Shown: positions 658 to 22,195, numbered from the stretch's first letter. The stretch is DNA of 64,000 bases from a virus (IMGVR_UViG_3300038345_000251:311248-375247); one strand, 5' to 3'. Notes: generated from the sequence alone by a model not told the origin. Program-made: numbers and translations.

Positions 658-1218
658 ATGAAAGTTTTAGTTGTAATTGATTGCCAAAATGATTTTATTG
701 ATGGCAGTCTTAGAAATGAAGAAGCAATTAAGAAAGTTCCTAACATTGTTAAGAAAATTAAGGAAAACGAATGGGATGCAATTTATGTAACCCAAGATAC
801 TCATGGTGAAGATTATCTTACAACACGTGAGGGTAGAAATCTTCCAGTTGTACATTGTGTAAAATATACAGATGGATGGAAGATTAATGAAGACATTAAT
901 AAAGCAATTAAAGACGCTAAATTTAATCGTAATATTAATGTTGTCTATATTCATAAACCAACGTTTGGTTCTAAAACATTGAAGCAAATGATTGAAGAAG
1001 AATTTAAGTACACGAAACCTGAAGAGTTATATATTGAATTTTGCGGTTTTTGTACAGATATTTGTGTGATAAGTAATGTACTTCTTGTTAAAGAAGCACT
1101 TTATGAAAATGCAGATATTACTGTTGATGCTTCTTGTTGTGCAGGTGTAACACCTGAATCACATAATGCAGCACTTCTTACAATGAAGATGTGCCAAATA
1201 AAGGTAATTAATGAGTAA
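658..1218 (+). CDS. pncA: nicotinamidase (PncA), isochorismatase/cysteine-hydrolase family
   Basis: VLVVIDCQNDF, QDTHG, VVHCV (metal-binding D/H/H), IHK (catalytic Lys) and GFCTDICV (nucleophile Cys) align with E. coli PncA motifs. A promoter-like TATATTTG lies 19 nt upstream. Confidence 0.8.
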   Translation: MKVLVVIDCQNDFIDGSLRNEEAIKKVPNIVKKIKENEWDAIYVTQDTHGEDYLTTREGRNLPVVHCVKYTDGWKINEDINKAIKDAKFNRNINVVYIHKPTFGSKTLKQMIEEEFKYTKPEELYIEFCGFCTDICVISNVLLVKEALYENADITVDASCCAGVTPESHNAALLTMKMCQIKVINE

Positions 1219-1220
1219 AT

Positions 1221-1509
1221 ATGACTAAAGAAACATTAGATAAGGTTCTTGAAGAACTTGAAATAAGTGCTGTAGCATTTTGAATCACCGTCATATCTTA
1301 ATGCAATTATTGGTATATCACATGATGATAGATTGATTTATGATTATGATAAAATGATTGACTGTCTTGTTGAAGAAGATGGTATGTCATATGAAGAAGC
1401 AATGGAGTTTATTGATTATAATACAATAAGAGCACTTCCATATTATCCAAATGGACCAATTATTTTAATGCGACCAGCACCGTTGGAAGTAGAATTAGAT
1501 GAACAATGA
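1221..1509 (+). other. small gene in two frames: ORF A 1221..1283 (20 aa) ends at TTT TGA, and ORF B continues in the +1 frame to 1509. Candidate programmed +1 frameshift or a disrupted gene
   Basis: gca ttt tga atc at 1275-1286. The +1 frame is open from 1282 to the TGA at 1507-1509. The joined product would be about 96 aa. Confidence 0.25.
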
Positions 1510-1600
1510 AAGGAATAAATTTATTTTAACAATTTTTTCCTAATTAAATCAATCTTTTTTAGATTTCTTAAATATTTATTAACAGGTAAATATTTAAGAA

Positions 1601-2400
1601 ATGAAAAAAATCAATGTTAACAATTTAATAGAAGAATTAAAAAATGTTCATAATAACAAATATGATTATTCAGAGGTAGAATATAAAAATTGGAGAACCA
1701 AGGTTTGTATAATATGTCCAGAGCACGGAGAATTTTGGCAAACATTATACAATCATGCAAAAGGACAAGGTTGTCCTAAATGTGGAAAAATAAATTGTTC
1801 TAATAAATTGTCATTAACAACAGAAGAATTTATTAAACGTGCAAGAGAAGTTCATGGAGATAAATATGATTATTCTAAAGTTGAATATGTAAATAATCAT
1901 AGCAAAGTATGTATAATATGCCCAGAGCACGGAGAATTTTGGCAAATACCAGCAAACCATTTAAATGGTTGTGATTGCCCTAAATGTAAAAACAATTTTA
2001 AAAAGAATACAGAAGAATTTATTAAACGTGCAAGAGAAGTTCATGGAGATAAATATGATTATTCAAAAGTTAATTATATTAATAACCGAACAAAGGTATG
2101 TATAATATGTCCAGAGCACGGAGAATTTTGGCAAACGCCAAATAAACATTTGTCGGGTCAACATTGTCCTTATTGTACACTAAATAAAAAATTAGAAAAA
2201 ATAGAATTTATTGACAAAGCAAGAGGAATACATGGCAACAGATATGATTATTCAAAAGTTAATTATATTAATAACCGAACAAAAGTATGTATAATATGTC
2301 CAGAGCACGGAGAATTTTGGCAAACGCCAGCAAATCATTTAAGTAATCATGGATGTCCAAAGTGTAAAGAAAAACAAAGTAAACTTGAAAAAGAAATAAA
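1601..2400 (+). repeat. four tandem ~195-bp in-frame coding repeats (e.g. tgtccagagcacggagaattttggcaaac), near-identical to repeats in 44762..45720 and 47900..48800
   Basis: The 29-mer recurs at about 1715, 1916, 2110 and 2297. Stretches of more than 50 bp are identical between 1811-1870, 2011-2070 and 45171-45230. Confidence 0.8.
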
Positions 2401-2719
2401 AAAAATATTAGATGAAGAAAAAATAATATATATTTTTCAATATAAAAAAGAATGGTTAAAATTTAAAAACCAAATGTCTTTAGATTTTTATTTACCTGAT
2501 TATAATATAGCGATTGAATGTCAAGGTGAACAACATTTTAAACCAATATATTATTTTGGTGGAGAGAAAGAATTTAAAATTGTCCAAAAAAGAGATAAAT
2601 TAAAAAAAATGTTATGTGAAAAAAATAATATTAAACTTTTATATTATAGTGATAAAAAGTATGATAACGAAATAATAACAGAAATAAATGAATTATTAAA
2701 AAGGATAAAAAATGTGTAA
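1601..2719 (+). CDS. homing endonuclease paralog 1: four tandem ~65-aa zinc-ribbon modules ([23 protein letters not shown]) plus a C-terminal Vsr/DUF559-like PD-(D/E)XK nuclease domain ([20 protein letters not shown])
   Basis: Internal repeats are seen in both protein and DNA. The C-terminal motif matches the DUF559/Vsr-like endonuclease signature. Paralogs lie at 44762 and 47817. Confidence 0.7.
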
Positions 2720-3638
2720 AGGTATTGTTTTAGCTGGTGGCACAGGTAGTAGACTTTTTCCTATAACAAAAGGTATACCAAAATCTTTAATTCCATTATA
2801 TGACAAACCCATTGTATATTACCCACTATCAGTACTTATGCTTGCTGATATAAAGGATATACTTATTATAACTACACCCGAAGATGCAGATTCTTTCAAA
2901 CGTCTTTTAGGTGATGGTTCTAATTTTGGTGTTAATTTATCTTATGCTGAACAGCCAACACCAGGTGGTTTAGCACAAGCATTTATTATTGGTGAAGAAT
3001 TTATTGGTGATGATGCATCATGTATGATTCTTGGTGACAATATTTTTCAAGGACCTGGTTTAAGGGAAAAATTATTATTTGCAAAATCTATTGCTGAAGG
3101 TGAAGTAGTTCCAAGAGCAGTTGTTTTCGGTTATGAAGTTTCAGACCCAGAAAGATATGGAGTTGCTGAAATTTCAAGAGTGACTGAAGATGGTATGTTA
3201 TGGAGTGTTCATTCACTTGAAGAAAAACCATTAAAACCAAAATCAAATATTGCGGTTACTGGATTGTATTTTTATCCACCAGGTGTATCTGAAATTGCTA
3301 AAATAATTAAACCATCTGAGAGAGGTGAACTTGAAATAACAGAACTTAATAGGTTATATAACAATACTGTTGCAAATGATGGCTATACGATGTTAGATTT
3401 GATTCTACTTGGTAGAGGTTTTGCTTGGCTTGATACAGGAACATTTGACAGTTTATCTGAAGCATCTAATTATATTGAAACTATACAGAAAAGACAGGGT
3501 TTAAAAGTATCATGTCTTGAAGAGATTGCATATAATAATGGATGGATTACTAAAGATAAATTGTGGGAAATTGGAGAATCAATGCAAAAAAATGAATATG
3601 GTAAATATCTTATGAAACTTGCATACAAATCAGTTTAA
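2712..3638 (+). CDS. rmlA: glucose-1-phosphate thymidylyltransferase (RmlA/RfbA)
   Basis: N-terminus [43 protein letters not shown] closely matches the RmlA signature. Length is 308 aa. Confidence 0.85.
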
Positions 3639-3683
3639 TAAAATATTTATATATAAATAATTAGATAAAAAAAGTATTTATAT

Positions 3684-5156: not shown

Positions 5157-5158
5157 TT

Positions 5159-7147
5159 ATGTACACATATACAGTAGGTAAAAAAAGTCAAATTGATAGT
5201 GTTTTCACTAATGGTTATAGTAGACAGTTTGCAGGTGATGCAGAAGGTGTAGACTATGGTATTGGCGTGTATTGTAATATATCATATAATGATAAAGAAA
5301 CACCAAGAGAATCATTAGGAAGATATAGTAGAGACCCACAAAATAATTGTATATTTAGAAATGAATTAGAAGGTGGTCTTGACAGATTTTTGATTTTTGA
5401 TGAACGTTTTGCTAGAAAGGTATATGGGGAACATTATTTCATTAAAGACCAAGTGTATCGTCTTTTTCCTAAAGATGTTGCTGATGATTTGTGGAAAGAT
5501 ATAAAGTGGTATATGTCTTTAGATACTTCTTCACAAGGCAATGGAAACCATATGAATGGTAGAACCTCTGGCTTATTACAATTTATGATGTCAAAACATC
5601 TTAGAGGAAATGTTGCAAACCCTAAAAAATATGAAAACATTTTTGGAAAATATAACGTTAGAGGTGCAATATATAGAGGTAGAGGAGATGGTTTTTGTAT
5701 GGTTGTTTATAACTACGATGAAATTAAACCTGTTGCATATTCAGTTGATGGTGGTAGAACATATCTTAAGAAAAACGTAAAATATACATATCCTGATATT
5801 GTAAGAAGATTAAGACATTTATATAAAAAAATAGATTTTCCAATTGCGATACAAGGTGATGATAGGATATATTATTTTGCAAAAGTTCAGAAAAAGAATG
5901 GTAAATGGAACTATGTTGATGCTACAACACAAGAAGAAATATCTGTAGTAGATTTTGATTCTTGTACATCTATTAATCCTAATAATGGAATGTTTCAAAT
6001 TGAATATAATGGTAAATTCTATAATGCTTGTCCCGATGGGTTTTTTGATAGTGAAGATGAAGGACATACATGGGATGAATTACCATTATTTGATGAAGAC
6101 ATTGATAGTTTAGATGAAGATACAAAACGTTTTAATAAACTTTTGGTAGAAAGTTTTAAAAATGTTTTAAGTGATTATAATATGTTTTCAGAAATCTTGA
6201 ACGAAATTCGTGATGAGGAAAACGATGTAGATGAAGTTTCATATTATCATTATAATGTTCCTGATTTGTCTTATTTTGATTCTTCAGATGTTCCATCTAT
6301 CTATCACGTAACCAAAGAAGGAAATGTTGAAGATATTTTTAGAAATGGCTTTGATAGAGAATTCTTAAGTGTATATGCTTATGGGAAAGGTGTATATGCT
6401 GCCTATGATGTTGCAAATGGTAGAAATCAAATTCCTAGTTATGGAACAGCAATGTTACAGTTAAAACTTATTGGTGGTTATGATAGATTTTTAATTTTTC
6501 CTAATAGTGATAACACTAAAAGACTTGCAATTAAATATTATGGAAATAATTATGATATTTTAAGCCAATTGAAATCTTTTTTACCTGAAAGGATTGCAAT
6601 AGAAGTATATGGCGCATGTGGCAGTAGTATTGAAGGATATTCACATTACGCAAGTAAATATCATATACGTGGTGCTGTCTATCAATGGGGAAGAACAATC
6701 GCAGTATTACCATATGACTTTTCAACAGTTGTTCCATATGCTGTTTCATATGATGGTGGTAAAACATTTAAAAAGAAAATTAATAATAGAAGTTGGCAAC
6801 GTTTTTTAACAAATATTGATGTTGAATGGAGATATAGCAGACAATATAAAAAAATCGAAAAACCAATTTTAGGATATAATAGTGAAGGACAAGAAACTGG
6901 TTACGCAAAAGTTCAGAAAAAAAATGGTAAATGGAATTACATTGACATTCAGACAGGTAATGAAGAATTACCATTTGATTTTGATTCATTAACAAGTCTT
7001 AATCCAGAAACAGGTGATTTCCAAGCAGAATATAAAGGAAATATATTAAATGCTTGTTTTGACGGATTTTATGATAACGATGGTGATGGTCATACATGGA
7101 ATGAACTTGATTCATATCTTAATAATCAAAATGATTTAGATTTATAA
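5159..7147 (+). CDS. internally duplicated protein (two ~330-aa halves). Each half carries a PARP-like ADP-ribosyltransferase motif set and a C-terminal WG-like beta module
   Basis: The halves align (GGLDRFLIF / GGYDRFLIF; YAKVQKKNGKWNY in both). Second half: YHVTKEGNVEDIFRNGF resembles the PARP1 HGSRTTNFAGILSQGL motif with matching H/N/I/G spacing, and YGKGVYAAYD resembles FGKGIYFAD. First half: YNYDEI resembles the catalytic YNEYIV motif. Confidence 0.4.
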   Translation: MYTYTVGKKSQIDSVFTNGYSRQFAGDAEGVDYGIGVYCNISYNDKETPRESLGRYSRDPQNNCIFRNELEGGLDRFLIFDERFARKVYGEHYFIKDQVYRLFPKDVADDLWKDIKWYMSLDTSSQGNGNHMNGRTSGLLQFMMSKHLRGNVANPKKYENIFGKYNVRGAIYRGRGDGFCMVVYNYDEIKPVAYSVDGGRTYLKKNVKYTYPDIVRRLRHLYKKIDFPIAIQGDDRIYYFAKVQKKNGKWNYVDATTQEEISVVDFDSCTSINPNNGMFQIEYNGKFYNACPDGFFDSEDEGHTWDELPLFDEDIDSLDEDTKRFNKLLVESFKNVLSDYNMFSEILNEIRDEENDVDEVSYYHYNVPDLSYFDSSDVPSIYHVTKEGNVEDIFRNGFDREFLSVYAYGKGVYAAYDVANGRNQIPSYGTAMLQLKLIGGYDRFLIFPNSDNTKRLAIKYYGNNYDILSQLKSFLPERIAIEVYGACGSSIEGYSHYASKYHIRGAVYQWGRTIAVLPYDFSTVVPYAVSYDGGKTFKKKINNRSWQRFLTNIDVEWRYSRQYKKIEKPILGYNSEGQETGYAKVQKKNGKWNYIDIQTGNEELPFDFDSLTSLNPETGDFQAEYKGNILNACFDGFYDNDGDGHTWNELDSYLNNQNDLDL

Positions 7148-7149
7148 AC

Positions 7150-7263: not shown

Positions 7264-8391
7264 TTAAGTACCTATGAGATTCTGTTTCTCTAAGGCTATT
7301 GTTTTTATATTAATGGCAGCATTAATATCTCTATCATGTACCTTTCCACATTCAGGACATATCCACTCTCTATCTGATAATTTCAAATCATTGTTGATAT
7401 ATCCACAATTGTGGCATAACTTGCTACTTGGTTCAAACCTGCCTATAAATACAATGTTATTCCCATACCATTCAGATTTATATTCCAACTCTCTAATAAA
7501 TTCACTCCAAGCAGCATCAGTAATTGCTTTTGCAAGATTATGATTTTGTTCCATTCCCTTTACATTCAAGTCCTCTAAACATATGGTATCAAATCTCTTA
7601 ACTAAATCTGTAGATAACTTCTGTATGAAATCAGTTCTTTGATTTGTTATTTTCCTATATGTTTTTGCTACTTTTATCCTTGCTTTTTCACGGTTTTTAC
7701 TACCTTGCTTGGTTCTTGCAAAGCATTTTTGCCAATGAGCAAGCATCTTTTGTAATTTATCCAAATGTTTTGGATTACTGTATTTAGTGCCATCAGATAA
7801 TATGGCATAATCCTTTATTCCTAAATCAATACCAACTGCTGTTTCTGTTGCAATTGGCTTCTTTTGTTGGTTAGGTTGTTGATTATCAATCAACACTGAT
7901 AACCAATAAGTACCACATTTATCTTTAGATACAGTTACAGTACCTTGTTTACAAGTATTTTGATTCCAAGTTCTGTTCTTACATAAATCAACCCAACCCA
8001 ATTTAGGCAACTTTACTTTCCAATTATCAAAATCAAAATGTACTGAATTAATAAACTTAATACTATCTTTAGATTTCTTTTTTGATTTAAAGTTAGGGTA
8101 TTTTGTTTTTTTTCTAAAGAAAGCAGTGAATGCTGATTCAAGATTTCTAAGTGACTGTTGTAGTCCTTCATTAGTACAGGTATTCAACCATTGATAATCT
8201 TGTTGTTGTTTAAGTTGTGTTAGTTGTTTAGCAAGATGCATATATGTCAATGAACTACCATTTTCTTTATAAGCATTTGTTTTTTGTTCCAATCCCCAGT
8301 TGTAAATGAATCTAGTACAGCCAAAGAATTGAGATAACAATGCTTGTTGTTTATCATTTGGTTTTATTTTGAACTTATATGCTTTAATCAT
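7264..8391 (-). CDS. tnpB: TnpB (OrfB) RNA-guided nuclease of the IS200/IS605 family
   Basis: N-terminus MIKAYKFKIKPNDKQ. C-terminal zinc finger CHNCGYINNDLKLSDREWICPECGKVHDRDINAAINIK. The true start is at 8391, since the ORF-track start at 8466 adds an unlikely leader. Confidence 0.85.
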   Translation of the reverse strand: MIKAYKFKIKPNDKQQALLSQFFGCTRFIYNWGLEQKTNAYKENGSSLTYMHLAKQLTQLKQQQDYQWLNTCTNEGLQQSLRNLESAFTAFFRKKTKYPNFKSKKKSKDSIKFINSVHFDFDNWKVKLPKLGWVDLCKNRTWNQNTCKQGTVTVSKDKCGTYWLSVLIDNQQPNQQKKPIATETAVGIDLGIKDYAILSDGTKYSNPKHLDKLQKMLAHWQKCFARTKQGSKNREKARIKVAKTYRKITNQRTDFIQKLSTDLVKRFDTICLEDLNVKGMEQNHNLAKAITDAAWSEFIRELEYKSEWYGNNIVFIGRFEPSSKLCHNCGYINNDLKLSDREWICPECGKVHDRDINAAINIKTIALEKQNLIGT

Positions 8392-8536
8392 AATGTATAT
8401 ATGTATTACTATATATAAATAGTAAATTAAAGTCGAAAAGTCAATATTTACTTTAATTATTTTCAAAAAATTAAGGTGGATTTAGTGTAAACATGTATAT
8501 TATTTCCATATTTAATTTATGTTAATGCAGGGAATG

Positions 8537-8568
8537 TTTGATTCTCTGCATTTTTTTTTGTACTTTTG
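8537..8568 (+). promoter_or_regulatory. promoter: TTTG (8537-8540), N20, TACTTTTG (8561-8568)
   Basis: Matches the Bacteroides sigma-A consensus TTTG-N19-21-TAnnTTTG, upstream of rmlC. Confidence 0.55.
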
Positions 8569-8579
8569 TAAAAAAAGTT

Positions 8580-9185
8580 ATGTTATCTTATAATCAAATA
8601 TGTGGTTTTAATGGTTTATATATCTTAGAACCAAAAAAGTTTCTTGATGATAGAGGGTATTTTCAAGAATTATTTAACAAAGACGAATTTGAAAACTATA
8701 CTAACATTAAATTTCAACCTGTTCAAGAAAATGAAAGTTCATCTAAGGCAGGTGTTGTTAGAGGATTACATTTTCAAAAAGGTGATTTTGAACAAGCAAA
8801 ACTTGTAAAATGTTTTAGAGGTGCAATTATTGATGTCGCACTTGATTTAAGAAAAGATTCTTTTTCTTATGGAAAATTGTTCAGTACAGTACTTTCAGAA
8901 AAGAACAATAAGCAATTGTTTATCCCTAGAGGCTATGCACATGGTTTCATAGCACTTGATGAAAATACTGATAATGTAATTAGATATTTAACTGATAATC
9001 CATATTCGCCTAATGATGAAGATGGTGTTTTATTTGATAGTGAATATCTTAATCTTGCTTTTAAAAATGCTATTTGTGATGAATTTCCAAAAGGAATAGC
9101 AGAAAAATTTTTGAATTATGATTTAACGTTTTCCGAAAAAGATTTAACATTCAAAGAATGGGATAGTTACTATGAGAAAGGATAA
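8580..9185 (+). CDS. rmlC: dTDP-4-dehydrorhamnose 3,5-epimerase (RmlC), cupin fold
   Basis: RGLHFQ and FIPRGYAHGF motifs. The start at 8580 lies just downstream of a TTTG-N20-TACTTTTG promoter at 8537-8568. The ORF-track start at 8538 would include the promoter. Confidence 0.8.
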   Translation: MLSYNQICGFNGLYILEPKKFLDDRGYFQELFNKDEFENYTNIKFQPVQENESSSKAGVVRGLHFQKGDFEQAKLVKCFRGAIIDVALDLRKDSFSYGKLFSTVLSEKNNKQLFIPRGYAHGFIALDENTDNVIRYLTDNPYSPNDEDGVLFDSEYLNLAFKNAICDEFPKGIAEKFLNYDLTFSEKDLTFKEWDSYYEKG

Positions 9186-10038: not shown

Positions 10039-10965
10039 ATGATTAGAATTTTAGGAGAAGAAATCAAGGTGAATCATTTTCCAGATGGTTCACAAATGCT
10101 GTTAAATTTTGAACAAATTGATAGAATTGTAGGATATGCTCGTGAAAATGAAACGATGTACTCAATATCTATTCATTGGAATTATGAAAATGATGAAGAA
10201 TTAGTTACTTTGTTTTATCTTGTAAAACATATTCGTCAATGTGTTAAAGATTGTGCATTAGACTTGCATATGAGTTATATACCAAATGCAAGACTTGATA
10301 GAATTAAGAAAAATAGCGAAGTGTTTACATTAAAATATTTTGCTGATTTTATTAATTCTTTGAACTTTAGATATGTATATGTTTTTGACCCGCATTCTGA
10401 TGTAAGTGCTGCATTAATTAATAATATTAATATAATGTCACCCGAAAATGCTATTGATAAAGCATTTGATGGTATATGCCGTGATTTGTTTGGATGCGCA
10501 TGGAATATAAAGGATAAATATGAAAACATAGTGTTATATTATCCTGATTACGGTGCAAAGAAACGTTATTCAAGTCTTAAAAAGTTTGAGAAATTTAAAC
10601 TTGTTTATGGTTGTAAAACCAGGGATTGGGAAACAGGTAAGATTACAGGTTTGAAAATCTGTGATAAAGACGGTATCGTAATTGATTATTCTGAAGATAA
10701 AGAGATACTTAAAGATAAAGTTGTCTTAATGATTGATGATATTGTTTCTTATGGTGGCACACTTGCTTATAGTGCTGACGCACTTAAAGAATATGGTACA
10801 AAAGATATTTATGCATATGCATCCCATACTGAAAACAGTATTCTTGATAAAGAAAAGAGTACACTTCTTAAGAGACTTGAAAATGGAACAGTTAAACGTT
10901 TGTTTACAACAAATAGTATTTATCGTGGTGAAAATGAACATATTGAAGTAAATAATATTTTCTAA
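10039..10965 (+). CDS. ribose-phosphate pyrophosphokinase (Prs)-like enzyme, candidate ADPR-PP synthetase (Adps) of a NARP1-like NAD reconstitution pathway
   Basis: FPDGS, IPNARLDR, FDPHS, YPDYGA and VVLMIDDIVSYGGTLAYSADALKEYGTKDIYAYASH are collinear with E. coli Prs motifs. Confidence 0.7.
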   Translation: MIRILGEEIKVNHFPDGSQMLLNFEQIDRIVGYARENETMYSISIHWNYENDEELVTLFYLVKHIRQCVKDCALDLHMSYIPNARLDRIKKNSEVFTLKYFADFINSLNFRYVYVFDPHSDVSAALINNINIMSPENAIDKAFDGICRDLFGCAWNIKDKYENIVLYYPDYGAKKRYSSLKKFEKFKLVYGCKTRDWETGKITGLKICDKDGIVIDYSEDKEILKDKVVLMIDDIVSYGGTLAYSADALKEYGTKDIYAYASHTENSILDKEKSTLLKRLENGTVKRLFTTNSIYRGENEHIEVNNIF

Positions 10966-11225
10966 TGAAAAAAGAAAAGATTTATATTTGTGACCGTTGT
11001 GGTAGTGAAATTGATACAGAGAAAGAACCTTATGGTGAATTAGATTATGCATACAATGTTAAAAACAAAAGAGGCTATAACTGCCGAATGTCTTTAACAG
11101 GTAGTTATGAGCATACACATCTTTGTAAAAAATGTGCTGATTTATTTCATACTGTTCTTGGACTGTATGGGTTTGAAACTATTAGAGATAAATGGTGGGA
11201 TGAAAGTATTAATTTAAAAAAATGA
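10965..11225 (+). CDS. zinc-ribbon protein (CxxC...CxxC)
   Basis: CDRCGSE...CKKCAD. Confidence 0.45.
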   Translation: MKKEKIYICDRCGSEIDTEKEPYGELDYAYNVKNKRGYNCRMSLTGSYEHTHLCKKCADLFHTVLGLYGFETIRDKWWDESINLKK

Positions 11226-11884
11226 AACTGTTAGAAAACGAAGAATACTATATTGCTTATGCAACTATTAGTGGAAAGAAAGAAATAAGTAATATAATTG
11301 TGCCAAGTAAAATTAAAATTGTTAAAATTGATTTTACTGGAACATATTATATGTGTTATAAAGACGAAGACAAAATTCCTTTTTTAACTATACCAAAAGA
11401 AGATTTTGATAAAGATGAAGAGAATTATTGTTGTGAAACATTAAAAGGAATTGTTTGTGTTTCTAAAGACAGTAATTGGGTAAATAACAAATATTTTACT
11501 TGGCTTAAAAAAGCACTTTGGTGGTTTGATGCATATGCTAATGAACAGGTTCGAAAATTAAAGGAAAAACTTGATGAAAAAAGAGAAAAATATAGTACTG
11601 TAATCAAAGATACAATAAGAATTGGTATTGACAATTGTCCTAAGTTATCAGAAGAAGAAATACAAGAATATTTTGAGAATCATAGTGAAAAATCTCACAG
11701 ATATTGTTGGAAATCATATAAGTCTGCAATTCTTAATTATTACGAAACCTATAGACATTTTTATTGGTGGGACACACCATCCAAGTTTTGGAAAGATTTT
11801 GATTTCTATACAGAAAGAAAAACACAGAAATGGTTGTTTAATCATGAACCGTTTCAACCTAATTATTCAGAAGATGATTCATAG
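11222..11884 (+). CDS. hypothetical protein
   Basis: ORF overlapping the upstream stop. Confidence 0.5.
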   Translation: MKLLENEEYYIAYATISGKKEISNIIVPSKIKIVKIDFTGTYYMCYKDEDKIPFLTIPKEDFDKDEENYCCETLKGIVCVSKDSNWVNNKYFTWLKKALWWFDAYANEQVRKLKEKLDEKREKYSTVIKDTIRIGIDNCPKLSEEEIQEYFENHSEKSHRYCWKSYKSAILNYYETYRHFYWWDTPSKFWKDFDFYTERKTQKWLFNHEPFQPNYSEDDS

Positions 11885-11927
11885 TTTGGTATAAAAATTG
11901 ATAATGTATTTTTAAAAATTAAAAAAT

Positions 11928-11978
11928 ATGGAAATTAATGCTTTATTACTTAAAGATTTTTACAAAGCAGTGCATTAA
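11928..11978 (+). pseudogene. 5' fragment (16 codons, MEINALLLKDFYKAVH*) homologous to the start of the NAMPT-family gene at 13013
   Basis: About 78% nt identity to 13013-13063. Ends in a stop codon. Lies directly upstream of the GIY-YIG endonuclease gene. Confidence 0.5.
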
Positions 11979-12038
11979 AAACAGATTTTTATAAACTTTT
12001 TCATTATTGTTAATATTTATTAATAAAGGATATACGAC

Positions 12039-13007
12039 ATGGAAAAGATTGTTTTAGAAGAGTTATTAAATGGTGCTACTGTAACGTTGCCTGAATTTAC
12101 AAGTCATAAAAACATTGTTTATTGTTGTGAAAATTGTTTAAATGGAAAAGTTTATATTGGAGAAACTAAAAGAAGTTTAAGAGAAAGGTGGATTGACCAT
12201 AAAAATTGTATGAATAAAACGTGTAAAAGGAATATAAAAGCCGCTATTTATGATGCAATAAGAAAATATGGTACAACAAACTTTTATGTTTACATATTAG
12301 AAGAAAATTTAGAAAACGATGATAAAAGAAAAGAAAGAGAAAAGTATTGGATTTCTAAATTTAATGCATTTATTGATGCTGAAAACAGTAATGGTTATAA
12401 CATGACCACAGGAGGCTATTGTGAATCCAAAATCTCAAAACAAAAAGTAAAGAGAGAAACAAAAACATGTATTGAAAAATATGGTGTGTTACCAATAAAC
12501 ACGAAAGAAAGTAGGAAAAAGGCTTTAGAAACAAATAGGAAAAATCACAACGGTATTCTTGCTTTTCAAGCAGACATTTATAGAAAAAAAGGTAAAAAAA
12601 CACAAATTGAAAAGTATGGTATGTTAGCTGTTCATTTGCCTGAAAACAAAGAAAAAGCAAAAAAGGCAATGAAAGAATATAAAGAAAAAAATGGTGTTTT
12701 ACCTTTTAATACAAAAGAAGCAATAGAAAAAGCACAAAAGGTTGCTCCTTTATATAGAATGATAAGTTGTATAAACAGACATTTGAAAATATTAAAGGAA
12801 AAAAGTTTGAAAATTAATGCAACAAACTATGTGTTTGAAACAAATGATGTTAAACATATGTGGCAACAACATGTTCCTCATGTGTTAAATAAACTTGATG
12901 AACTAAGAAAAATTGATAAATGGAGTAATGATATGGAGAATATATTTTCTAATATCATTTATGATAAAAAGGAAAAAGGAATTAAAAAAATTAAGTTTAA
13001 ATATTAA
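12039..13007 (+). CDS. GIY-YIG homing endonuclease (Seg-like) with repeated C-terminal DNA-binding motifs
   Basis: VYIGETKRSLRERWIDHKN is a GIY-YIG core with Arg and His. Repeats KYGVLPINTKESRKKA and KNGVLPFNTKEAIEKA. Confidence 0.7.
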   Translation: MEKIVLEELLNGATVTLPEFTSHKNIVYCCENCLNGKVYIGETKRSLRERWIDHKNCMNKTCKRNIKAAIYDAIRKYGTTNFYVYILEENLENDDKRKEREKYWISKFNAFIDAENSNGYNMTTGGYCESKISKQKVKRETKTCIEKYGVLPINTKESRKKALETNRKNHNGILAFQADIYRKKGKKTQIEKYGMLAVHLPENKEKAKKAMKEYKEKNGVLPFNTKEAIEKAQKVAPLYRMISCINRHLKILKEKSLKINATNYVFETNDVKHMWQQHVPHVLNKLDELRKIDKWSNDMENIFSNIIYDKKEKGIKKIKFKY

Positions 13008-13012: not shown

Positions 13013-14638
13013 ATGAAAATAAATCCATTATTGTTATGTGATTTTTACAAAGCGGTTCATAACATGCAAATACCGCAGAACATGGTAAAATCTGTAAGTT
13101 ATTTTACACCTCGTAGTTCACGTATTAAAATTTGGGACCAGGTAGTTAATTTTGGTTTGCAAGCATTTTGTAAAACTTATCTTATTGATTATTTTAATAA
13201 GAATTTTTTTGAAAGACCAAAAAAAGAAGTTGTAAAAGAATATCGTAAATACATGGAAGATACTCTTGGTGTTGGCGTTTGTGATTTTACTAAGATTGAA
13301 AAACTCCATGATTTAGGTTATCTACCTATTGAAGTTGTTGCTCTTCCTGAAGGTATGTTGGTAGATATTCACGTACCTATGTTTGGTATCACTAATACTC
13401 ACCCTGACTTTGCTTGGCTTGGACAAGCTCTGGAATCCCTTATTTCCGCAGAACTCTGGTATCCTATGGTATGTGCTACTGTTGGTCACACATACCGTCA
13501 AATCGTGGATAAATGGTATTCAAAGACATGTGATGATAATGTACCTCGCAGACGTGCACTTGGTAATTTTGATTTTCGTGGAGACCAAGGACTTGATGCA
13601 GCACTTAAAGCAGGTTCTGCTTGGTGTTTGTCTTTTGTAAATACTGCAACTGTACCTGTAATTCCTTATCTTGAAAAGAATTATAACTGTAATTCTTCAA
13701 TAGAAGAAGTTGGATTTGGTGCTGTTTCTACTGAACATTTTGTAATGTGTTCTAACAGTGCTATTGATACCCTCAATAATCCAGATTATGAATATGCTGA
13801 CATCGACCCTTATCGTGAACGTATATTTTTGAAGAAACTTCTTACTGAACTTTATCCTAACACTTCATTCAGTTGTGTATGTGATAGTTATGATTATTGG
13901 AATGTTGTGGAAAATATTCTTCCAACATTGAAAGAAGAAATCCTTAACCATAATGGTTGTTTACTTGTACGTGGTGATAGTGGTGATTGTGTAAAGGTTG
14001 TTACTGAAACTGTATTCAAACTTTGGGATATTTTTGGTGGTACTGTTAATAGTAAAGGGTATAAAGTACTTAATCCACACGTTAAAGCACTTTATGGTGA
14101 TAGTATTACTATTCAACGTGCAGATAAGATTTATTCTATTCTTGAACAGAATGGTTTTGCTGCACAGAACGTAAGTCTTGGTGTTGGTTCTTTCAGTATG
14201 CATTGTATTGAAGAAGTTGCTGATGTAACAGTAAGAAACTATGTTCCTGCTACCGATGGTTGTACTTCTGTTGAGGTTACTACAGGTGAAGCAGTTATTC
14301 TTTCTCCTTTCACTAGAGACACGTTTGGAATGGCGATTAAAGCTGTCTATGGTGAGTTTTTGAATGAGGATGGCAGTGTTACTAAACTTTCAATATTTAA
14401 AGACCCTAAGACTGACAGAGAATCAGGTGGTGGTAATTTCAAGAAATCACAGAAAGGATGTTGTAAAGTATTTTGGCGTGATAAATGGAACAGACGTATT
14501 ACATTTGAAGATGGTCTAACGTGGGATGAGGCTTCAACACCTGATAATTTAATGCAACCTATTTTCAAAGATGGTAAAATGATAGAAGAGCAAACCCTAT
14601 CTGAAATTCGTTATAGATTGAATAATGGAAAGTTCTAA
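13013..14638 (+). CDS. NAMPT-family phosphoribosyltransferase (NadV-like), or Namat-like nicotinamide-ADPR transferase if paired with the Prs-like gene
   Basis: Extensive collinearity with human NAMPT: DFYKAVH, IEVVALPEG, FDFRG, CDSYD, VRGDSGD, NSKGYKVL and FKDP...KK. Confidence 0.85.
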   Translation: MKINPLLLCDFYKAVHNMQIPQNMVKSVSYFTPRSSRIKIWDQVVNFGLQAFCKTYLIDYFNKNFFERPKKEVVKEYRKYMEDTLGVGVCDFTKIEKLHDLGYLPIEVVALPEGMLVDIHVPMFGITNTHPDFAWLGQALESLISAELWYPMVCATVGHTYRQIVDKWYSKTCDDNVPRRRALGNFDFRGDQGLDAALKAGSAWCLSFVNTATVPVIPYLEKNYNCNSSIEEVGFGAVSTEHFVMCSNSAIDTLNNPDYEYADIDPYRERIFLKKLLTELYPNTSFSCVCDSYDYWNVVENILPTLKEEILNHNGCLLVRGDSGDCVKVVTETVFKLWDIFGGTVNSKGYKVLNPHVKALYGDSITIQRADKIYSILEQNGFAAQNVSLGVGSFSMHCIEEVADVTVRNYVPATDGCTSVEVTTGEAVILSPFTRDTFGMAIKAVYGEFLNEDGSVTKLSIFKDPKTDRESGGGNFKKSQKGCCKVFWRDKWNRRITFEDGLTWDEASTPDNLMQPIFKDGKMIEEQTLSEIRYRLNNGKF

Positions 14639-15938: not shown

Positions 15939-15959
15939 GATTAACGCGATTTTGGATAA

Positions 15960-16953: not shown

Positions 16954-16954
16954 A

Positions 16955-17768: not shown

Positions 17769-17886
17769 AACATATTATTTTATATATAAATAGTTTTTTA
17801 TAGTAAAATGAATTTTTTGTACTATTTATAATTAAAATAAAGATAATAATTGGTTTTTTAACCCTTAGTATAAAACATTTATATAA

Positions 17887-18273
17887 ATGAAACGAGTAAC
17901 GATACATAAAAGAAGTAGTGTAGCCGACCAAATGCCAGCAAGTTTGGAATATGGCGAGATTGCAGTTAACTATTCAGCAAATAAAGAGTTCCTTTCAATC
18001 AGAAATTCAAGTAATAATATGGTAATATTCCCATCATCAGGTATTATTACCACAGCTATCAATACAGCAGTAAATGCAGAAAAGACAAGAGCGCAGGATG
18101 CTGAATCAACATTACAAACGAATATTGATAATGAAGCAACTGCACGTGCAAATAAAGATACTGAATTAGAAAATGCAATCAACGAATATAAGACAACTGT
18201 TGCTGCTGCTTTAAATGAATTACAGAACAGAACAACAAGTCTTGAATCAAGAGTAACTGCACTTGAACCTTAA
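17887..18273 (+). CDS. coiled-coil protein, possibly a fibre or structural component
   Basis: C-terminal heptad-like TELENAINEYKTTVAAALNELQNRTTSLESRVTALEP. Terminator at 18297-18331. Confidence 0.4.
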   Translation: MKRVTIHKRSSVADQMPASLEYGEIAVNYSANKEFLSIRNSSNNMVIFPSSGIITTAINTAVNAEKTRAQDAESTLQTNIDNEATARANKDTELENAINEYKTTVAAALNELQNRTTSLESRVTALEP

Positions 18274-18296
18274 CTGCCATAATCAAAAACTAATAT

Positions 18297-18331
18297 AAGC
18301 AAGTCAATTTTTATTGGCTTGCTTTTTTTTT
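18297..18331 (+). terminator. terminator (aagcaag...cttgctt + T9)
   Basis: 7-bp stem with a long T-run. Confidence 0.5.
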
Positions 18332-18353
18332 ACAATATTTTTTTGTACTTTTG
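18322..18353 (+). promoter_or_regulatory. promoter -7 box TACTTTTG (18346-18353)
   Basis: tttgTACTTTTGtag lies upstream of 18376. Confidence 0.4.
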
Positions 18354-18375
18354 TAGCAGATAAAAAAGTATATGT

Positions 18376-18987
18376 ATGAAAATGACATTTGCAATTGATT
18401 GTGATGAAGTATTACGTTCATTATTGTCCAATATGATTTCATTATATAATAGAGAGTTTAATGAAAATATTGAATATGATGATGTAAAAGATTTTGTTGT
18501 TGATGTATCTTTTCCTAAGATACAGGAAACTACTGGTATAACAGCCTCACAGTGGTTTTTCCAAGACCATAGTACTGAATTATTTATGGAATCAGAAGCA
18601 TTACCTAAAGTAAAAGAAGCAATAGAAATACTTAAAGAATTTGGTGATGTCATTATTGTAACATATCAAAAGACATATAAAAATAAAATAGAAACTTTAA
18701 ATTGGTTAGAAAAACAGGGTATTTTTCCTGATGGTATCTGTTTTCTTAAAGATAAAACTTTGATTCATACTACTTTCTTCATTGATGATAATGATTGGAA
18801 TTTTAATGGATGTAATGCCCTTATGGGTATTCTTATTGATGCACCATATAATAAAGATATTGATATAAATGAATTAAAAGAAAAAAGTAATTGTAAAAAA
18901 ATGTATCGTTATCATTCATTATATGAATTTGCATGTAGTATTAAAAAAATAACAAACGTTATAAAACTTGCCGAAAATGGAATATAA
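18376..18987 (+). CDS. HAD-like hydrolase, possibly a 5'(3')-deoxyribonucleotidase family member
   Basis: N-terminal FAIDCDEVL resembles HAD motif I (DxDGVL). Confidence 0.35.
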   Translation: MKMTFAIDCDEVLRSLLSNMISLYNREFNENIEYDDVKDFVVDVSFPKIQETTGITASQWFFQDHSTELFMESEALPKVKEAIEILKEFGDVIIVTYQKTYKNKIETLNWLEKQGIFPDGICFLKDKTLIHTTFFIDDNDWNFNGCNALMGILIDAPYNKDIDINELKEKSNCKKMYRYHSLYEFACSIKKITNVIKLAENGI

Positions 18988-19750
18988 GAATTGGAAAGAA
19001 TTATATATAGAAAACAGAAGTTTAATTGACTTCGAATTCAAAAATCGTCTTTATGATGTTTTAAATAAACTTCTACAAAAGATTGATTACTTTCAAAATG
19101 AGGAACATAAAGAAATTGATGGTGGAGAACCTTATTCAGTAAATCAACCACATAGAGATAACATAGAGAAGTTAGAGAAATTCTACAGACCTTTGTATAA
19201 CTATATCAATACTGTTTCATTGCCATTAATGGAACAGCATAAGACTTATTTAGACAAAATAAGACATGAATTTGTTGATTTAGTTTTTCCTGAACTTACA
19301 GAAGACGGAATAAACAAAATGAGAGGTAAACCACATTGGTATGAGGATTATGTTAGAACCTGTAGAAGAGCATACGATTTATCTCAAATGTTAGAAGCAA
19401 TTTTCAGATATTCATATGAATTAGGTGCGACTAATATTGATGCAGAACCAGAAGATAAATACAATCAAAAAGAGTTTTCTTGGGATGAAGGAACATTCTA
19501 TGAAAAGGTCAGAAAATTACATCTTTCTCGTATGCAATCGTATGGAAAAAATACTATTTTTGGAAAAATGCTTGCTTCTATTGTTGATATGGGTACAAGA
19601 ATGGGTTATGACCAAGCAATTAAAGATGGATTAAGTGAAGAAGAAGCGCATAAAAAGAGTTATGATGTTGGTATGCAACAAGGAATAGATTTCTTAAAAC
19701 AATGTTTTAAAACCGAAGATAATGACAGCCAAAATGACAACCAAAAGTAA
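18968..19750 (+). CDS. hypothetical protein
   Basis: ORF. Confidence 0.5.
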   Translation: MPKMEYKNWKELYIENRSLIDFEFKNRLYDVLNKLLQKIDYFQNEEHKEIDGGEPYSVNQPHRDNIEKLEKFYRPLYNYINTVSLPLMEQHKTYLDKIRHEFVDLVFPELTEDGINKMRGKPHWYEDYVRTCRRAYDLSQMLEAIFRYSYELGATNIDAEPEDKYNQKEFSWDEGTFYEKVRKLHLSRMQSYGKNTIFGKMLASIVDMGTRMGYDQAIKDGLSEEEAHKKSYDVGMQQGIDFLKQCFKTEDNDSQNDNQK

Positions 19751-19937
19751 AACTTTAAAAGCATCAGAATTAATAGAAAAATTAGTTAAAATTATTTCTA
19801 TTTACGGAGATTTAGATGTATTTGTTGATGATTTCTCTTATATAACAGACGTTTACAAAAATGATGTTGATATAAACGAATGGGAAGAATCATCATGGAT
19901 TCAAATAGACACTGATTATGATTTAGGAGAAGAATAG
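19722..19937 (+). CDS. hypothetical small acidic protein
   Basis: ORF. Confidence 0.35.
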   Translation: MTAKMTTKSKTLKASELIEKLVKIISIYGDLDVFVDDFSYITDVYKNDVDINEWEESSWIQIDTDYDLGEE

Positions 19938-19939
19938 AT

Positions 19940-20410
19940 ATGACAATTATTTATAAAAGTGGTGATATTTTTGATAGCGAAGTAAACATTATCTGTCATC
20001 AGGTTAATGCACAAGGTGTAATGGGTAGTGGTGTTGCTAAACAGGTTAAAGATAAATATCCAAGAGTATTTGATAAATATAAGGAAGCCTGTGATAAAGA
20101 TTTGTTTAAGCTTGGTTCATGTCAGGTTGTTGCTGTAGACGATACAAAAACAAAATTTATTGCTAATCTTTGTGGACAATGGAACTTTGGTTATGATGGG
20201 AAACGTTATACCAGTTATGATGCTATTTACAGTGCTTTAGAAAAACTGAGCGATTATTGTAAAAAGAAAAACATTCAAAGTATTGGTTTTCCATATAAAA
20301 TGTCATGTGATAGGGGTGGTGCAAGTTGGCATATTATTTTCTCTATGATTGAAGATGTCTTTACTGATAACAATAACATAATAATTGAAATCTGGCAATA
20401 TAAAAAGTAA
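19940..20410 (+). CDS. macro domain protein, TARG1/OARD1/DarG-like subfamily (ADP-ribose hydrolase)
   Basis: GDIFDSEVNIICHQVNAQGVMGSGVAKQVKDKYP aligns with human TARG1 GDLF..[23 protein letters not shown]. Confidence 0.65.
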   Translation: MTIIYKSGDIFDSEVNIICHQVNAQGVMGSGVAKQVKDKYPRVFDKYKEACDKDLFKLGSCQVVAVDDTKTKFIANLCGQWNFGYDGKRYTSYDAIYSALEKLSDYCKKKNIQSIGFPYKMSCDRGGASWHIIFSMIEDVFTDNNNIIIEIWQYKK

Positions 20411-20434
20411 ATTTTTAAATATATTTAAAATACG

Positions 20435-20950
20435 ATGAAAAACATTGATGAAAAACTTAACAATTTAAAGAAATTTGACAAATCAGAAAGGTCAAGTTTT
20501 CCTTATTGGTTTAACCATTGGAAAGCCTATAATTTAATGGCAAAGAAACTTGGTGTATGGAAATTTAAATACATCTTTCACGATTGGTATAAACCTTGGT
20601 TGAGACTGTTTATGCCTTATGAAAAAGTACAAGCATTTCATAGGAAACATTCTAATCATCATCCAGAATGGCTTGAAAATAAGTTCAAAAAATGTCAAAA
20701 CTGTTTGTATACACATGGTTATAGTTATATAGATAAATATGACTATGAAGGTACTTTAATTGATTGGGAATGTAGTAGATTCACTAAAACAGCCAAAACA
20801 TTAGACGCTTGTGGCGAATATAAAAACTTATTTCAGAGAGAAAAGTTTAAAGTAAAATATCCTGAACTTTATCACCAAGGTTGTCTTATGATTTTACAAT
20901 CAAAATTTTTTAGTACTTTGGAAAAACTTGGATTATATTCAATTGACTAA
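20435..20950 (+). CDS. hypothetical protein (His/Cys-rich)
   Basis: ORF. Confidence 0.5.
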   Translation: MKNIDEKLNNLKKFDKSERSSFPYWFNHWKAYNLMAKKLGVWKFKYIFHDWYKPWLRLFMPYEKVQAFHRKHSNHHPEWLENKFKKCQNCLYTHGYSYIDKYDYEGTLIDWECSRFTKTAKTLDACGEYKNLFQREKFKVKYPELYHQGCLMILQSKFFSTLEKLGLYSID

Positions 20951-20955
20951 TTAAA

Positions 20956-21312
20956 ATGACAATTAATTTAGAACCTTCAATAATACCTTATACTGATGGA
21001 GTAATTGAGATACGCTTCAGTTTAGAATTTCAAAAGATATATGATGCGGAAGTTGATTATATAGATTATATAATAAATTGTTATTATGAAGACCCTAATC
21101 ATTGTAGAATATTTACTTTTAAAGATGTATATCAATTTAATAAAGAAATAGAAGATTTAAAAGATACATTTACATTTGAAATGATAGATTCATATACAAT
21201 TGAAGCATTTAAAGTTAAAGTAATGGATTTATGTAATAAATTTATAAATGGTAGTATGATTGCAAAATCCAGTGATTACTATTTTATGTGGGATAATCAA
21301 AAATTTAATTAA
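20956..21312 (+). CDS. hypothetical protein
   Basis: ORF. Confidence 0.5.
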   Translation: MTINLEPSIIPYTDGVIEIRFSLEFQKIYDAEVDYIDYIINCYYEDPNHCRIFTFKDVYQFNKEIEDLKDTFTFEMIDSYTIEAFKVKVMDLCNKFINGSMIAKSSDYYFMWDNQKFN

Positions 21313-21313
21313 T

Positions 21314-22195
21314 ATGGAAAGAATTAAAGATTATAATAAACTTAAAGACGAATGTGTTGAATGGCTTCGTAAATGGTTTGATGAAAACGGTAAAGGTTGT
21401 AATGCTGTTATCGGTATTTCAGGAGGTAAGGATTCAACTATAGTTGCTAAACTATGTGTGGAAGCACTTGGTAAAGATAGAGTTATTGGTGTGTTGATGC
21501 CTAATGGTGTACAAAAGGATATTAATGATTCTATTGATATTTGTAAGTTATTTGATATTAAATATTATATTATTGATATTGAAAATGCTTATAATTCAAT
21601 AATTAAACAAGTAGGTGATTTTATTAAGTTTAAGACTACAACTAAATTGTCAGAACCTTCGTTACAAACAAGACAAAATCTTCCACCAAGACTTAGAATG
21701 TCAACACTTTATGCTGTTTCACAATCATTTAATGGTAGAGTAGTAGGTACTTCTAATGCTTCTGAAAATTATATCGGTTATTGTACTGCTTGGGGAGACC
21801 AGGTAAGTGATGTAGAGCCGATTGCGAATCTTACTGTAACAGAAGTTAAGAAACTTGGACATGCACTTGATATTCCTTATAAGTATGTTGAGAAAACACC
21901 TGCTGATGGACTTCCTGAAAGTTGTTCAGATGAAGAAAAATTTGGTTTTTCATATACGATGCTTGATGATTTTATTTGTGGTAACTATGAAAATGTTCCT
22001 ACCGATATACAGGCAAAAATTAACGGAATGCATATGCGTAACTTGTTTAAAATAAATAGAGTTATGATTGATACCTTTATGCCTGATGATATTTTTGAAT
22101 GGCAATATGGTTCATTAAATAGTTATCAAGAATTTATAGATGATATTGAAGCACACGATTGGCTAAATGATAATCAGGAGAATGGTGGTTTTTAA
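21314..22195 (+). CDS. nadE: NH3-dependent NAD+ synthetase (NadE)
   Basis: PP-loop VIGISGGKDSTIVAKLC, LMPNGVQ, KTPADGL and FGFSYTMLDDFICG are collinear with E. coli NadE. The start at 21314 is preferred over 21260. Confidence 0.85.
   Translation: MERIKDYNKLKDECVEWLRKWFDENGKGCNAVIGISGGKDSTIVAKLCVEALGKDRVIGVLMPNGVQKDINDSIDICKLFDIKYYIIDIENAYNSIIKQVGDFIKFKTTTKLSEPSLQTRQNLPPRLRMSTLYAVSQSFNGRVVGTSNASENYIGYCTAWGDQVSDVEPIANLTVTEVKKLGHALDIPYKYVEKTPADGLPESCSDEEKFGFSYTMLDDFICGNYENVPTDIQAKINGMHMRNLFKINRVMIDTFMPDDIFEWQYGSLNSYQEFIDDIEAHDWLNDNQENGGF

Follow-up and report, generated by a model that had tools for sequence, protein, structure and literature searches.

Described routes of NAD+ reconstitution and the genes of the window

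Depletion of nicotinamide adenine dinucleotide (NAD+) is among the commonest of bacterial antiviral strategies, and the phage pathways NARP1, NARP1-AP, NARP2 and NARP3 are now being catalogued. The closest to the locus described here is NARP1, which consists of Adps and Namat (Osterman et al. 2024; PMC12774641); the characterised Adps of this kind pyrophosphorylated ADP-ribose (ADPR) and was held to be distinct from Prs (Osterman 2024 preprint). We have analysed a 64-kb stretch of viral DNA, IMGVR_UViG_3300038345_000251:311248-375247 (the window; G+C ∼28%, nearly every gene on the + strand), which carries genes for a PncA-like nicotinamidase, an Adps-like Prs homolog, a Namat/NAMPT-family transferase, a Macro-domain protein and an NH3-dependent NAD synthetase (NadE). 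Conserved synteny, together with an active-site switch in the transferase that co-varies with the accessory genes, supports the reading of this set as a variant of NARP1 that is both a bacterial and a phage pathway. We think it rather probable, by somewhat more than an even chance, that the window holds a dispersed copy of a conserved module that would rebuild NAD+ through deamidated intermediates ('deamidated NARP1').

What the module shares with NARP1 is the pairing of an Adps-type Prs homolog with a Namat-family transferase, the latter with its catalytic His, Arg and Asp, the Asp and Tyr of its dimer interface and part of its adenine clamp. It departs from NARP1 in the replacement of Asp215 of the transferase by Ala (Ser or Val in relatives) and of Ala242 by Ser, in an insertion in the clamp within the window's clade, in having PncA and NadE as obligate partners, and in its predicted product, nicotinate adenine dinucleotide (NaAD) rather than NAD+, at the price of one extra ATP. 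In NARP1-AP (Adps-Adpp-Namat; bioRxiv 10.64898/2026.01.28.702374), the Poa1p-like Macro protein Adpp of Vibrio phage Gary turns ADPR-1''-phosphate into ADPR. A Poa1p-like Macro gene likewise accompanies Adps and Namat here, within the operon in at least 35 related loci, but that of the window is ∼5 kb from the Namat gene and is likened to Adpp by family only, and the module's operon adds PncA and NadE.

The Preiss-Handler route, or salvage I (PncA-PncB-NadD-NadE; PMC2330246), also deamidates first and lets NadE restore the amide last, and its bacterial versions are NrtR-linked. The module, however, is without PncB and NadD, and has instead an Adps and a Namat-type transferase that would give NaAD in one coupling step on the ADPR scaffold. 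A dedicated Prs paralog with a NadV-family gene, linked to NrtR, is common to the module, to the NrtR-regulated prs-nadV operons of gamma-proteobacteria and Cytophaga (PMC2330246) and to bacterial NARP1 (PMC12774641). Unlike the module, the prs-nadV operons listed in PMC2330246 are without pncA and mostly without nadE (nadE of Cytophaga being separately regulated); pncA-pncB-nadD-nadE is listed there too, and the present combination is not. NARP2 (NAMPT + NMNAT) and NARP3 (PnuC + NadR; PMC13464706) resemble the module as phage-encoded NAD+ restoration, but no NMNAT, NadR or PnuC turned up in the 64 kb, where a NUDIX protein stands alone. We also weighed NARP3 as a prior description of the module and rejected it, as PnuC + NadR is unrelated. 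The Francisella NMN (nicotinamide mononucleotide) synthetase route (NadE* + NadM; cited in PMC3376133) is alike in its short single-domain NadE, with 3FIU as nearest structure, yet the window is without NadM, and the company of NadE in the operon suggests a dinucleotide substrate derived from ADPR.

The earlier literature that we found comprises NARP1, NARP1-AP, RyDEP-NARP1, NARP2, NARP3 and a catalogue of NAD genes of gut jumbo phages that lists pncA, nadE and NAMPT separately (PMC11662467). Neither a link of PncA or NadE to Namat nor a chemistry joining nicotinate to ADPR pyrophosphate (ADPR-PP) was found in the full-text literature searched, the coverage of which was incomplete; within that coverage, an earlier note on this DNA was right to call a deamidated route new for phages.

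That note had drawn attention to the co-occurrence of PncA, NadE, Prs-like and NAMPT-like genes, and all four are in place on the + strand. The PncA-like nicotinamidase (658-1218, 186 aa) matches Pfam Isochorismatase PF00857 with 67.4 bits, has P. horikoshii pyrazinamidase/nicotinamidase 1ILW/1IM5 as its best match in the PDB, and carries the catalytic triad D8/K100/C136 with its Cys nucleophile, the metal site D47/H49/H66 and the DxQxDF motif (DCQNDF), as had been claimed for the metal triad and the nucleophile. It does not reach the NCBIfam nicotinamidase equivalog NF008623 (23.7 bits, cut-off 174), and we classify it, from its motifs and best PDB matches, as a divergent nicotinamidase. NadE (21314-22195, 293 aa, + strand; the open reading frame (ORF) runs from TTG 21260, with 21314 the probable ATG) is of the NH3-dependent kind that had been proposed: it matches NAD_synthase PF02540 with 180 bits and TIGR00552 with 176 bits (cut-off 63.65), contains the PP-loop SGGKDS, and is a single domain without a glutaminase domain.

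The Adps-like gene (10039-10965, + strand) encodes a protein of 308 aa that matches Pribosyltran with 30.3 bits and falls far below the cut-offs of all Prs models. Its similarity to Prs of B. subtilis amounts to 42.6 bits only, while BLASTP gives E=8e-44 to the Prs-like partner in the canonical NARP1 pair of PBC2 and E=7e-31 to that of G15, and a DDxxSYGGT loop is common to the three proteins. By BLASTP and profile comparison, as distinct from a formal phylogeny with Prs outgroups, the gene thus groups with the Adps-type partners of NARP1 and not with true Prs. The transferase gene (13013-14638, 541 aa, + strand) has NAPRTase and NAMPT_N domains and scores 400.7 bits against NF006629. Its best PDB matches are 9w5x/9w5w, at 358 bits as against ∼130 bits for NAMPTs; these entries are deposited as nicotinamide phosphoribosyltransferase, and their numbering fits the SpβL1 Namat of PMC12774641.

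Between the Adps-like and Namat genes, which are 2 kb apart in the window, lie an 86-aa ORF, a 220-aa ORF and a gene for a GIY-YIG endonuclease. The 220-aa ORF and the GIY-YIG homing endonuclease (11222-13007) are inserted there and are absent from a syntenic relative, L275 (86% identical; record labelled SHIW14 / SRR873603).

Pfam scans of ∼60 ORFs across the window revealed no NadD, NadM, NadR or PncB, and a six-frame scan of the same 64 kb for the (T/H)xGH nucleotidyltransferase motif was negative, in agreement with the earlier report that NadD, NadM and PncB are missing from the window.

The Macro-domain protein (19940-20410, 156 aa, + strand, Poa1p/Adpp-like) matches PF01661 with 44.9 bits. 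Its homologs occur in 1,693 phage records, some annotated as Poa1p-like or Appr-1''-p processing, and these include the NARP1 phages FADO, PBC2 and Izhevsk. In at least 35 of the related viral loci, about a third, the Macro gene stands between Namat and NadE; in the window it is several genes downstream of Namat, and so not within two genes of the NARP1 pair. In 18 viral loci (L040 11479-12237 and 17 others) the Macro slot between Namat and NadE is filled by a protein of ∼250 aa with a HAD-like DxDxT motif (FCVDFDDTLYDF) that has no Pfam match and may be an alternative phosphatase. Pfam scans of the small in-operon ORFs and of the 139-aa ORF of phage Phass-1 found nothing.

Conserved module and altered pyridine pocket

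Viral relatives were surveyed by tblastn and with hidden Markov models (HMMs) built from the clade, giving 111 loci including the window. In the relatives the genes stand close together on one strand as an operon, PncA-Adps-Namat-(Macro)-NadE. PncA, the Prs-like protein and NadE all accompany the transferase in 97/111 loci, most of the remainder being truncated, and PncA and/or NadE in 108. The three exceptions (L020, L021 and L024) have an Ala/Ser enzyme without visible partners, their short flanks holding unrelated genes only, and L022 has only PncA and the transferase within 10 kb. At least three gene orders are found, the order given above, Adps-Namat-Macro-NadE-PncA (as in MT835544) and NadE-PncA-Adps-Namat, so that the linkage has been upheld through rearrangement. 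Counted by gene, PncA adjoins Adps/Namat in ∼100 viral and 72 bacterial loci, NadE is an operon member in 97 loci of viruses and 60 of bacteria, and Adps is directly upstream of Namat in most of ∼190 related loci. The triad, metal ligands and DxQxDF motif of PncA are kept in 156-163 of the 163 operon-linked homologs (triad and metal site by themselves in 160-163), and the PP-loop of NadE is conserved in 152 homologs, its Lys in 146 of these. No second NAPRTase-family ORF, as would be expected of PncB, was seen near any operon examined. A conserved operon of these genes recurs in hundreds of related loci, so that their co-occurrence in the window is not due to chance.

Phage Phass-1 (L002 / L277, OQ749652.1) has the order PncA-Adps-Namat-139-aa ORF-NadE with overlapping genes. 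It is filed under 'Caudoviricetes code 15 clade', and its NAD operon has a large tRNA array and a suppressor tRNA (Sup-CTA) beside it. The annotation of its late region consists of numerous tiny ORFs, which would agree with TAG recoding, while the NAD operon reads through in the standard code. Over 45 kb the annotation of this phage is nearly all 'hypothetical' and fragmented, and is thus uninformative on nadD and pncB.

Scanning one genome per GTDB species returned 326 bacterial relatives, of which the best 80 loci were examined. All of these 80 are Ala/Ser, and the complete four-gene operon is present in 60 of them. Carriers include isolates of Ruminococcus albus and many genomes of Lachnospiraceae, Oscillospiraceae and Mogibacterium, many from metagenome-assembled genome (MAG) sets of ruminant gut. 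Two isolates show the operon among housekeeping genes, those for DnaE, a SpoU methylase and phosphofructokinase in the one and for DUF711, a glycoside hydrolase and an MFS transporter in the other, and in rumen and gut Clostridia it is chromosomal. The regulator NrtR (Nudix + winged helix) is encoded beside the operon, in the same orientation, in 53 of the 80 bacterial loci and in 0 of 195 viral loci; the phage copies are regulator-free versions of a cellular recycling operon. ADPR is reportedly the effector of NrtR. That NrtR regulates NAD metabolism, and a proposal that it binds ADPR, are found in PMC2330246. The earlier note had spoken of a phage route: the module does exist in phages, but it is not specific to them, for rumen and gut Clostridia have it as well, on the chromosome and linked to NrtR. 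Four operon contigs without an NrtR-like gene (L197-L199 and L266) are binned to Saccharibacteria and Methanobrevibacter MAGs, and may be phage contigs mis-binned into these MAGs.

The feature that sets the transferase of this module apart is its pyridine pocket. SpβL1 Namat holds nicotinamide by Phe189, Arg192, Asp215, Ala242, Arg306 and Asp13'/Tyr15'; Asp215 hydrogen-bonds the amide, and the D215A mutation cuts NAD+ formation 8.1-fold (PMC12774641). The equivalent residue of human NAMPT, Asp219, sets specificity for nicotinamide versus nicotinate (PMC4919578, PMC7096376), with D219S switching the substrate affinity and D219A abolishing activity (Khan et al. 2006, summarised in PMC7096376, PMC4919578). 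Alignment of the window transferase to 9w5x places Ala212 at the position of Asp215 (FVNTATVP as against FTGTDTIP) and Ser239 at that of Ala242. In relatives of the window enzyme the amide-reading Asp is replaced by Ala, Ser or Val, whereas the viral canonical Namat enzymes examined all keep Asp or Glu. The catalytic core is retained (H242, R320, D322, F186, R189, D10 and Y12), and other clade-specific changes lie near the pocket (G210N, H184G, H204W, R313H, P321G and G358K).

The published signature of the Namat selectivity clamp, GSXΦXΦXΦTRD, has aromatic residues in its third and seventh places and is accompanied by the SCL arginine (PMC12774641). The window transferase reads GSFSM-(37 aa)-FTRD, the motif being interrupted while the Phe at position 3, the TRD and Arg37 are kept; Arg37, Phe394 and the TRD of the adenine clamp are all retained. 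In the Phass-1 lineage, whose enzyme is 37% identical to that of the window, the clamp is nearly complete (GAYTYQYVTRD, with Ala replacing the Ser of the motif), and an Ala/Ser pocket occurs with PncA and NadE in 12/12 loci. The insertion in the window enzyme occupies residues 397-432 and is hypervariable: in most relatives it is ∼11 residues long, in the window 37, and it varies even among close relatives. Many representatives of the family have 800-1100 aa and align in separate pieces, suggesting that larger insertions, possibly inteins or endonucleases, exist elsewhere in it.

The state of the pocket goes together with the company that the enzyme keeps. As controls we used 84 viral loci found with the canonical Namat alignment, 74 with Asp and 10 with Glu at the D215 position. 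PncA and/or NadE accompany the transferase in 0/84 of these, as against 108/111 of the viral loci with Ala, although an Adps partner is present in 81 of the 84. Habitat alone does not explain this difference, since the controls include contigs of collection 3300045988, which is shared with the non-acidic loci.

Other pocket states point in the same direction. An HMMER search of 1.84 billion cluster representatives returned 3118 family members, and the pocket was read in the best 150, which were clustered at 50% identity. Among these best 150, the residues at the D215 and A242 positions are Asp/Ala in 83, Ala/Ser in 33, Ser/Ser in 17, Asp/Asn in 4 and Asp/Ser in 2, with Val/Ser and other states once each. 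The Ser/Ser contexts comprise PncA-Adps-transferase followed by the contig end (P0139), NadE-PncA-Adps-transferase (P0145), terminase-PncA-Adps-transferase-NadE (P0153), PncA-289 aa ORF-transferase-NadE (P0223) and a short, uninformative contig (P0195), and the Val/Ser context is Macro-PncA-Adps-transferase-NadE (P0130). PncA is therefore present in 4 of the 5 Ser/Ser contexts and in the Val/Ser context, and NadE in 4 of those 5 PncA-bearing contexts. By contrast, contexts with Asp/Ser (P0162), Asp/Asn (P0173) and Asp/Ala (P0150) are without PncA or NadE. We conclude that the loss of the acidic residue is the decisive feature; Ser at the Asp position is the same change that re-targets human NAMPT.

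In a midpoint-rooted neighbour-joining tree the main Ala/Ser clade is monophyletic and the Phass-1 lineage forms a separate deep branch. An independent origin of the Ala/Ser pocket in the Phass-1 lineage was considered, and this tree could not tell.

A proposed deamidated route and its rivals

From these gene identities and substitutions we infer the following substrates and products. PncA would convert nicotinamide to nicotinate and NH3, and the Adps-like Prs homolog would use ATP to convert ADPR to ADPR-PP. The Namat homolog, with Ala212 and Ser239, would then couple nicotinate to ADPR-PP, giving NaAD and pyrophosphate, and NadE would complete NAD+ from NaAD, ATP and NH3. To judge from Adpp of NARP1-AP, a further supply of ADPR probably comes from the Macro protein acting on ADPR-1''-phosphate. 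In a phage, such a route may restore NAD+ once an NADase-type defence has acted, and may provide for those enzymes of the phage that use NAD+. With ADPR-PP as donor the product would be NaAD directly, and no adenylyltransferase for nicotinate mononucleotide (NaMN) or NMN would be needed because the AMP moiety arrives with ADPR. This scheme would also explain why the module has no adenylyltransferase or PncB, why PncA and the transferase do not conflict, and why NadE is present; a nicotinamide-using Namat would compete with PncA for its substrate and leave NadE without one. The earlier note had put forward a deamidated route of this general form, in which a transferase accepting nicotinate works between PncA and NadE, and the conserved module, the lost acidic residue and its tracking with PncA and NadE lend that idea support at the level of sequence.

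Several points weigh against this proposal. The genes of the window span 21.5 kb with minus-strand genes interspersed, so that co-expression is not evident, and the absence of NadD, NadM, NadR and PncB holds for the 64-kb window, which is a part of the phage genome. A Ser hydroxyl at the pocket could also hydrogen-bond the amide, and the pocket change alone is thus not proof of nicotinate use. Across the window's clade the clamp motif is split by an insertion of 11-37 residues, so that a preference for ADPR-PP stands on weaker ground there than it does in the Phass-1 lineage. Among solved structures two are about equally close to NadE, 3FIU (125.5 bits; presumably Francisella NMN synthetase, acting on NaMN) and 2E18 (archaeal-type NadE; 124.3 bits), so that an attempt to read the choice between NaAD and NaMN from them failed. 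It is important to note that the association of pocket and partners counts sequences rather than independent events, and that the non-acidic enzymes may descend from one or few ancestors. Finally, the route would cost one ATP more than NARP1, for an advantage that is unexplained. We can only speculate on the reasons for such a detour: the route may have been inherited from hosts that use nicotinate as their salvage hub and whose own PncA would in any case drain nicotinamide, charged nicotinate may be retained while nicotinamide diffuses away, or a last step that is ATP-driven and irreversible may be of use.

Some of the same observations fit other explanations. The deamidated logic could operate at the level of mononucleotides, the Prs-like protein making phosphoribosyl pyrophosphate (PRPP) and the transferase replacing PncB to give NaMN, which host NadD would convert to NaAD or which an NadE of the NMN-synthetase type would pass on to host NMNAT. 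The best solved relative of NadE, 3FIU, the interruption in the window's clade of the clamp motif that enforces ADPR-PP, and the L022 locus with its PncA and transferase only would all suit such a scheme. So would the NrtR-linked pncA-pncB-(nadD)-nadE operons of Clostridium and Pseudomonas in PMC2330246, the place of pncB being held here by prs-nadV', and the PRPP activity that Namat retains in vitro (PMC12774641). Yet the Prs-like protein groups with the NARP1 partners (E=8e-44) and not with Prs (42.6 bits), the characterised Adps acts on ADPR and was classed apart from Prs (Osterman 2024 preprint), the adenine-clamp signature is near-complete in the Phass-1 lineage, a Macro gene of the ADPR-1''-phosphate type is embedded in the operon, and no NadD-like gene accompanies the module in phages. 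On this balance we regard the mononucleotide scheme as unlikely. We give even less credence, to the point of calling it improbable, to an ordinary nicotinamide-using NARP1 with unrelated helpers, in which PncA and NadE boost the Preiss-Handler route of the host through host PncB and NadD and the Ala/Ser pocket marks a lineage without functional effect. The separate listing of pncA, nadE and NAMPT as salvage genes in gut jumbo phages (PMC11662467) is what one would expect of it, Ser239 could replace Asp in the amide hydrogen bond, and the association could stem from shared ancestry. However, PncA would then destroy the substrate of Namat itself, D215A and D219A mutants are poor with nicotinamide, and no PncB or NadD is linked. 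Moreover, PncA and NadE accompany the non-acidic enzymes, be it with Ala, Ser or Val, throughout clusters that share ∼40-50% identity with the enzyme of the window, while Asp and Glu enzymes, even those with the second-site Ser, are without both, and membership of the operon survives three gene orders.

A different kind of alternative accepts the nicotinate and ADPR-PP chemistry and changes only its purpose: the module would be a housekeeping NAD+ recycling cassette from Clostridia that serves the NAD+ consumers of the phage (possible ADP-ribosyltransferases and, among its close relatives, an NAD-dependent DNA ligase) and not a counter to NADase defences. The bacterial copies are indeed chromosomal and adjoin NrtR, and in L275 an NAD-dependent DNA ligase lies between Macro and NadE. 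On the other hand, canonical NARP1 and NARP1-AP, with the same core enzymes, are demonstrated counter-defences, and the phage copies are without the regulator (0/195 viral loci) and often with a Macro gene of the aRES-countering type. The two purposes are not mutually exclusive; a housekeeping role in place of a defensive one seems to us possible but doubtful, though better placed than either of the preceding alternatives.

Wider surroundings and meaning of the module

Immediately downstream of nadE in the window is a gene for a 132-aa DUF4326 protein (22198-22596, + strand; Pfam DUF4326 48 bits, phrog_464). It was the sole match in a PHROGs scan of ten large unassigned window proteins, and is a possible accessory gene; the adjacency of NadE and DUF4326 is seen also in L019 and L275. 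At 17985-19883, between Macro and NadE, L275 encodes its NAD-dependent DNA ligase (DNA_ligase_aden + OB) and, upstream of this, an RNA ligase; the corresponding position of the window (20435-21312) holds two small unassigned ORFs of 171 and 118 aa, and no LigA was found in the 64 kb.

The module genes of the window are interspersed with unrelated and mobile genes, among them a DUF4379 treble-clef zinc finger (possibly endonuclease-like), rmlA-like and rmlC-like genes, two large proteins, a minus-strand TnpB, the GIY-YIG homing endonuclease, an OmpA-like protein, a minus-strand amidase and an NT5C nucleotidase. The rmlA-like (NTP_transferase; 2712-3638) and rmlC-like (dTDP_sugar_isom; 8538-9185) genes flank two large family-less proteins of 490 and 662 aa, an arrangement kept in L275. 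Of the broad NAD+/ADP-ribose gene set claimed by the earlier note, the named NAD genes stand, whereas for the 662-aa protein (5159-7147) as a PARP-like member the matches are marginal (Pfam E=0.004; PDB PARP14 E=0.024), and we left it out of the system. The TnpB gene (7264-8466, minus strand; IS605-type, OrfB_IS605 + Cas12f1-like TNB + HTH), placed between the genes of the 662-aa protein and the rmlC-like protein, looks like a recent insertion, because L275 has no gene at that position.

Three DUF4379/DUF723 treble-clef zinc-finger proteins, possibly paralogous, are encoded at 1601-2719, 44762-46099 and 47817-48812, and LAGLIDADG proteins at 24320-26179 and 55194-56249, the genome of the window being rich in selfish endonuclease genes. 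A DUF2828/DUF7788 protein occurs within a few kb of Namat-family genes in three differing phage contexts (window 46120-47787, L022 7463-8959 and L287 10810-12372). A cluster of genes for nucleotide and RNA handling extends over 50011-59019 of the window, with the 151-aa NUDIX protein (50011-50466), a nucleotidyltransferase of RlaP/pol-beta type (51273-52043), DUF1848 (52994-53761) and two calcineurin-like phosphoesterases (54273-55139 and 58204-59019). A tRNA scan of the window found none, and no DNA nearly identical to the Adps-Namat region was matched in the phage collection. The Namat-like proteins closest to the window enzyme are 86-89% identical, and similar proteins are encoded on metagenomic contigs as long as 356 kb and on viral contigs from IMG/VR that measure 217-355 kb; we infer that the window belongs to a jumbo phage of a rumen or gut community.

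Taken at its broadest, our proposal is that the non-acidic Namat subfamily makes NaAD from nicotinate and ADPR-PP, as a fourth route of NAD+ reconstitution that is native to rumen and gut Clostridia as ADPR-induced (NrtR-linked) recycling and has repeatedly been acquired by phages, probably against NAD+-depleting immunity. We hold this to be as probable as its negation. If true, it would add a pathway with a new enzyme specificity to those now known, and give a reason for the occurrence of pncA and nadE beside 'NAMPT' in phage genomes. The change from Asp would be a natural counterpart to the engineered D219S specificity switch of human NAMPT, and detection rules based on the adjacency of Adps and Namat would be merging two chemically different systems. 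A later reconstruction from gut genomes treats NadV solely as a nicotinamide-to-NMN enzyme; the label 'NadV/NAMPT', borne by many genes of Clostridia from gut and rumen and of the phages of these bacteria, feeds models of vitamin B3 auxotrophy and cross-feeding and would have to be reassigned.

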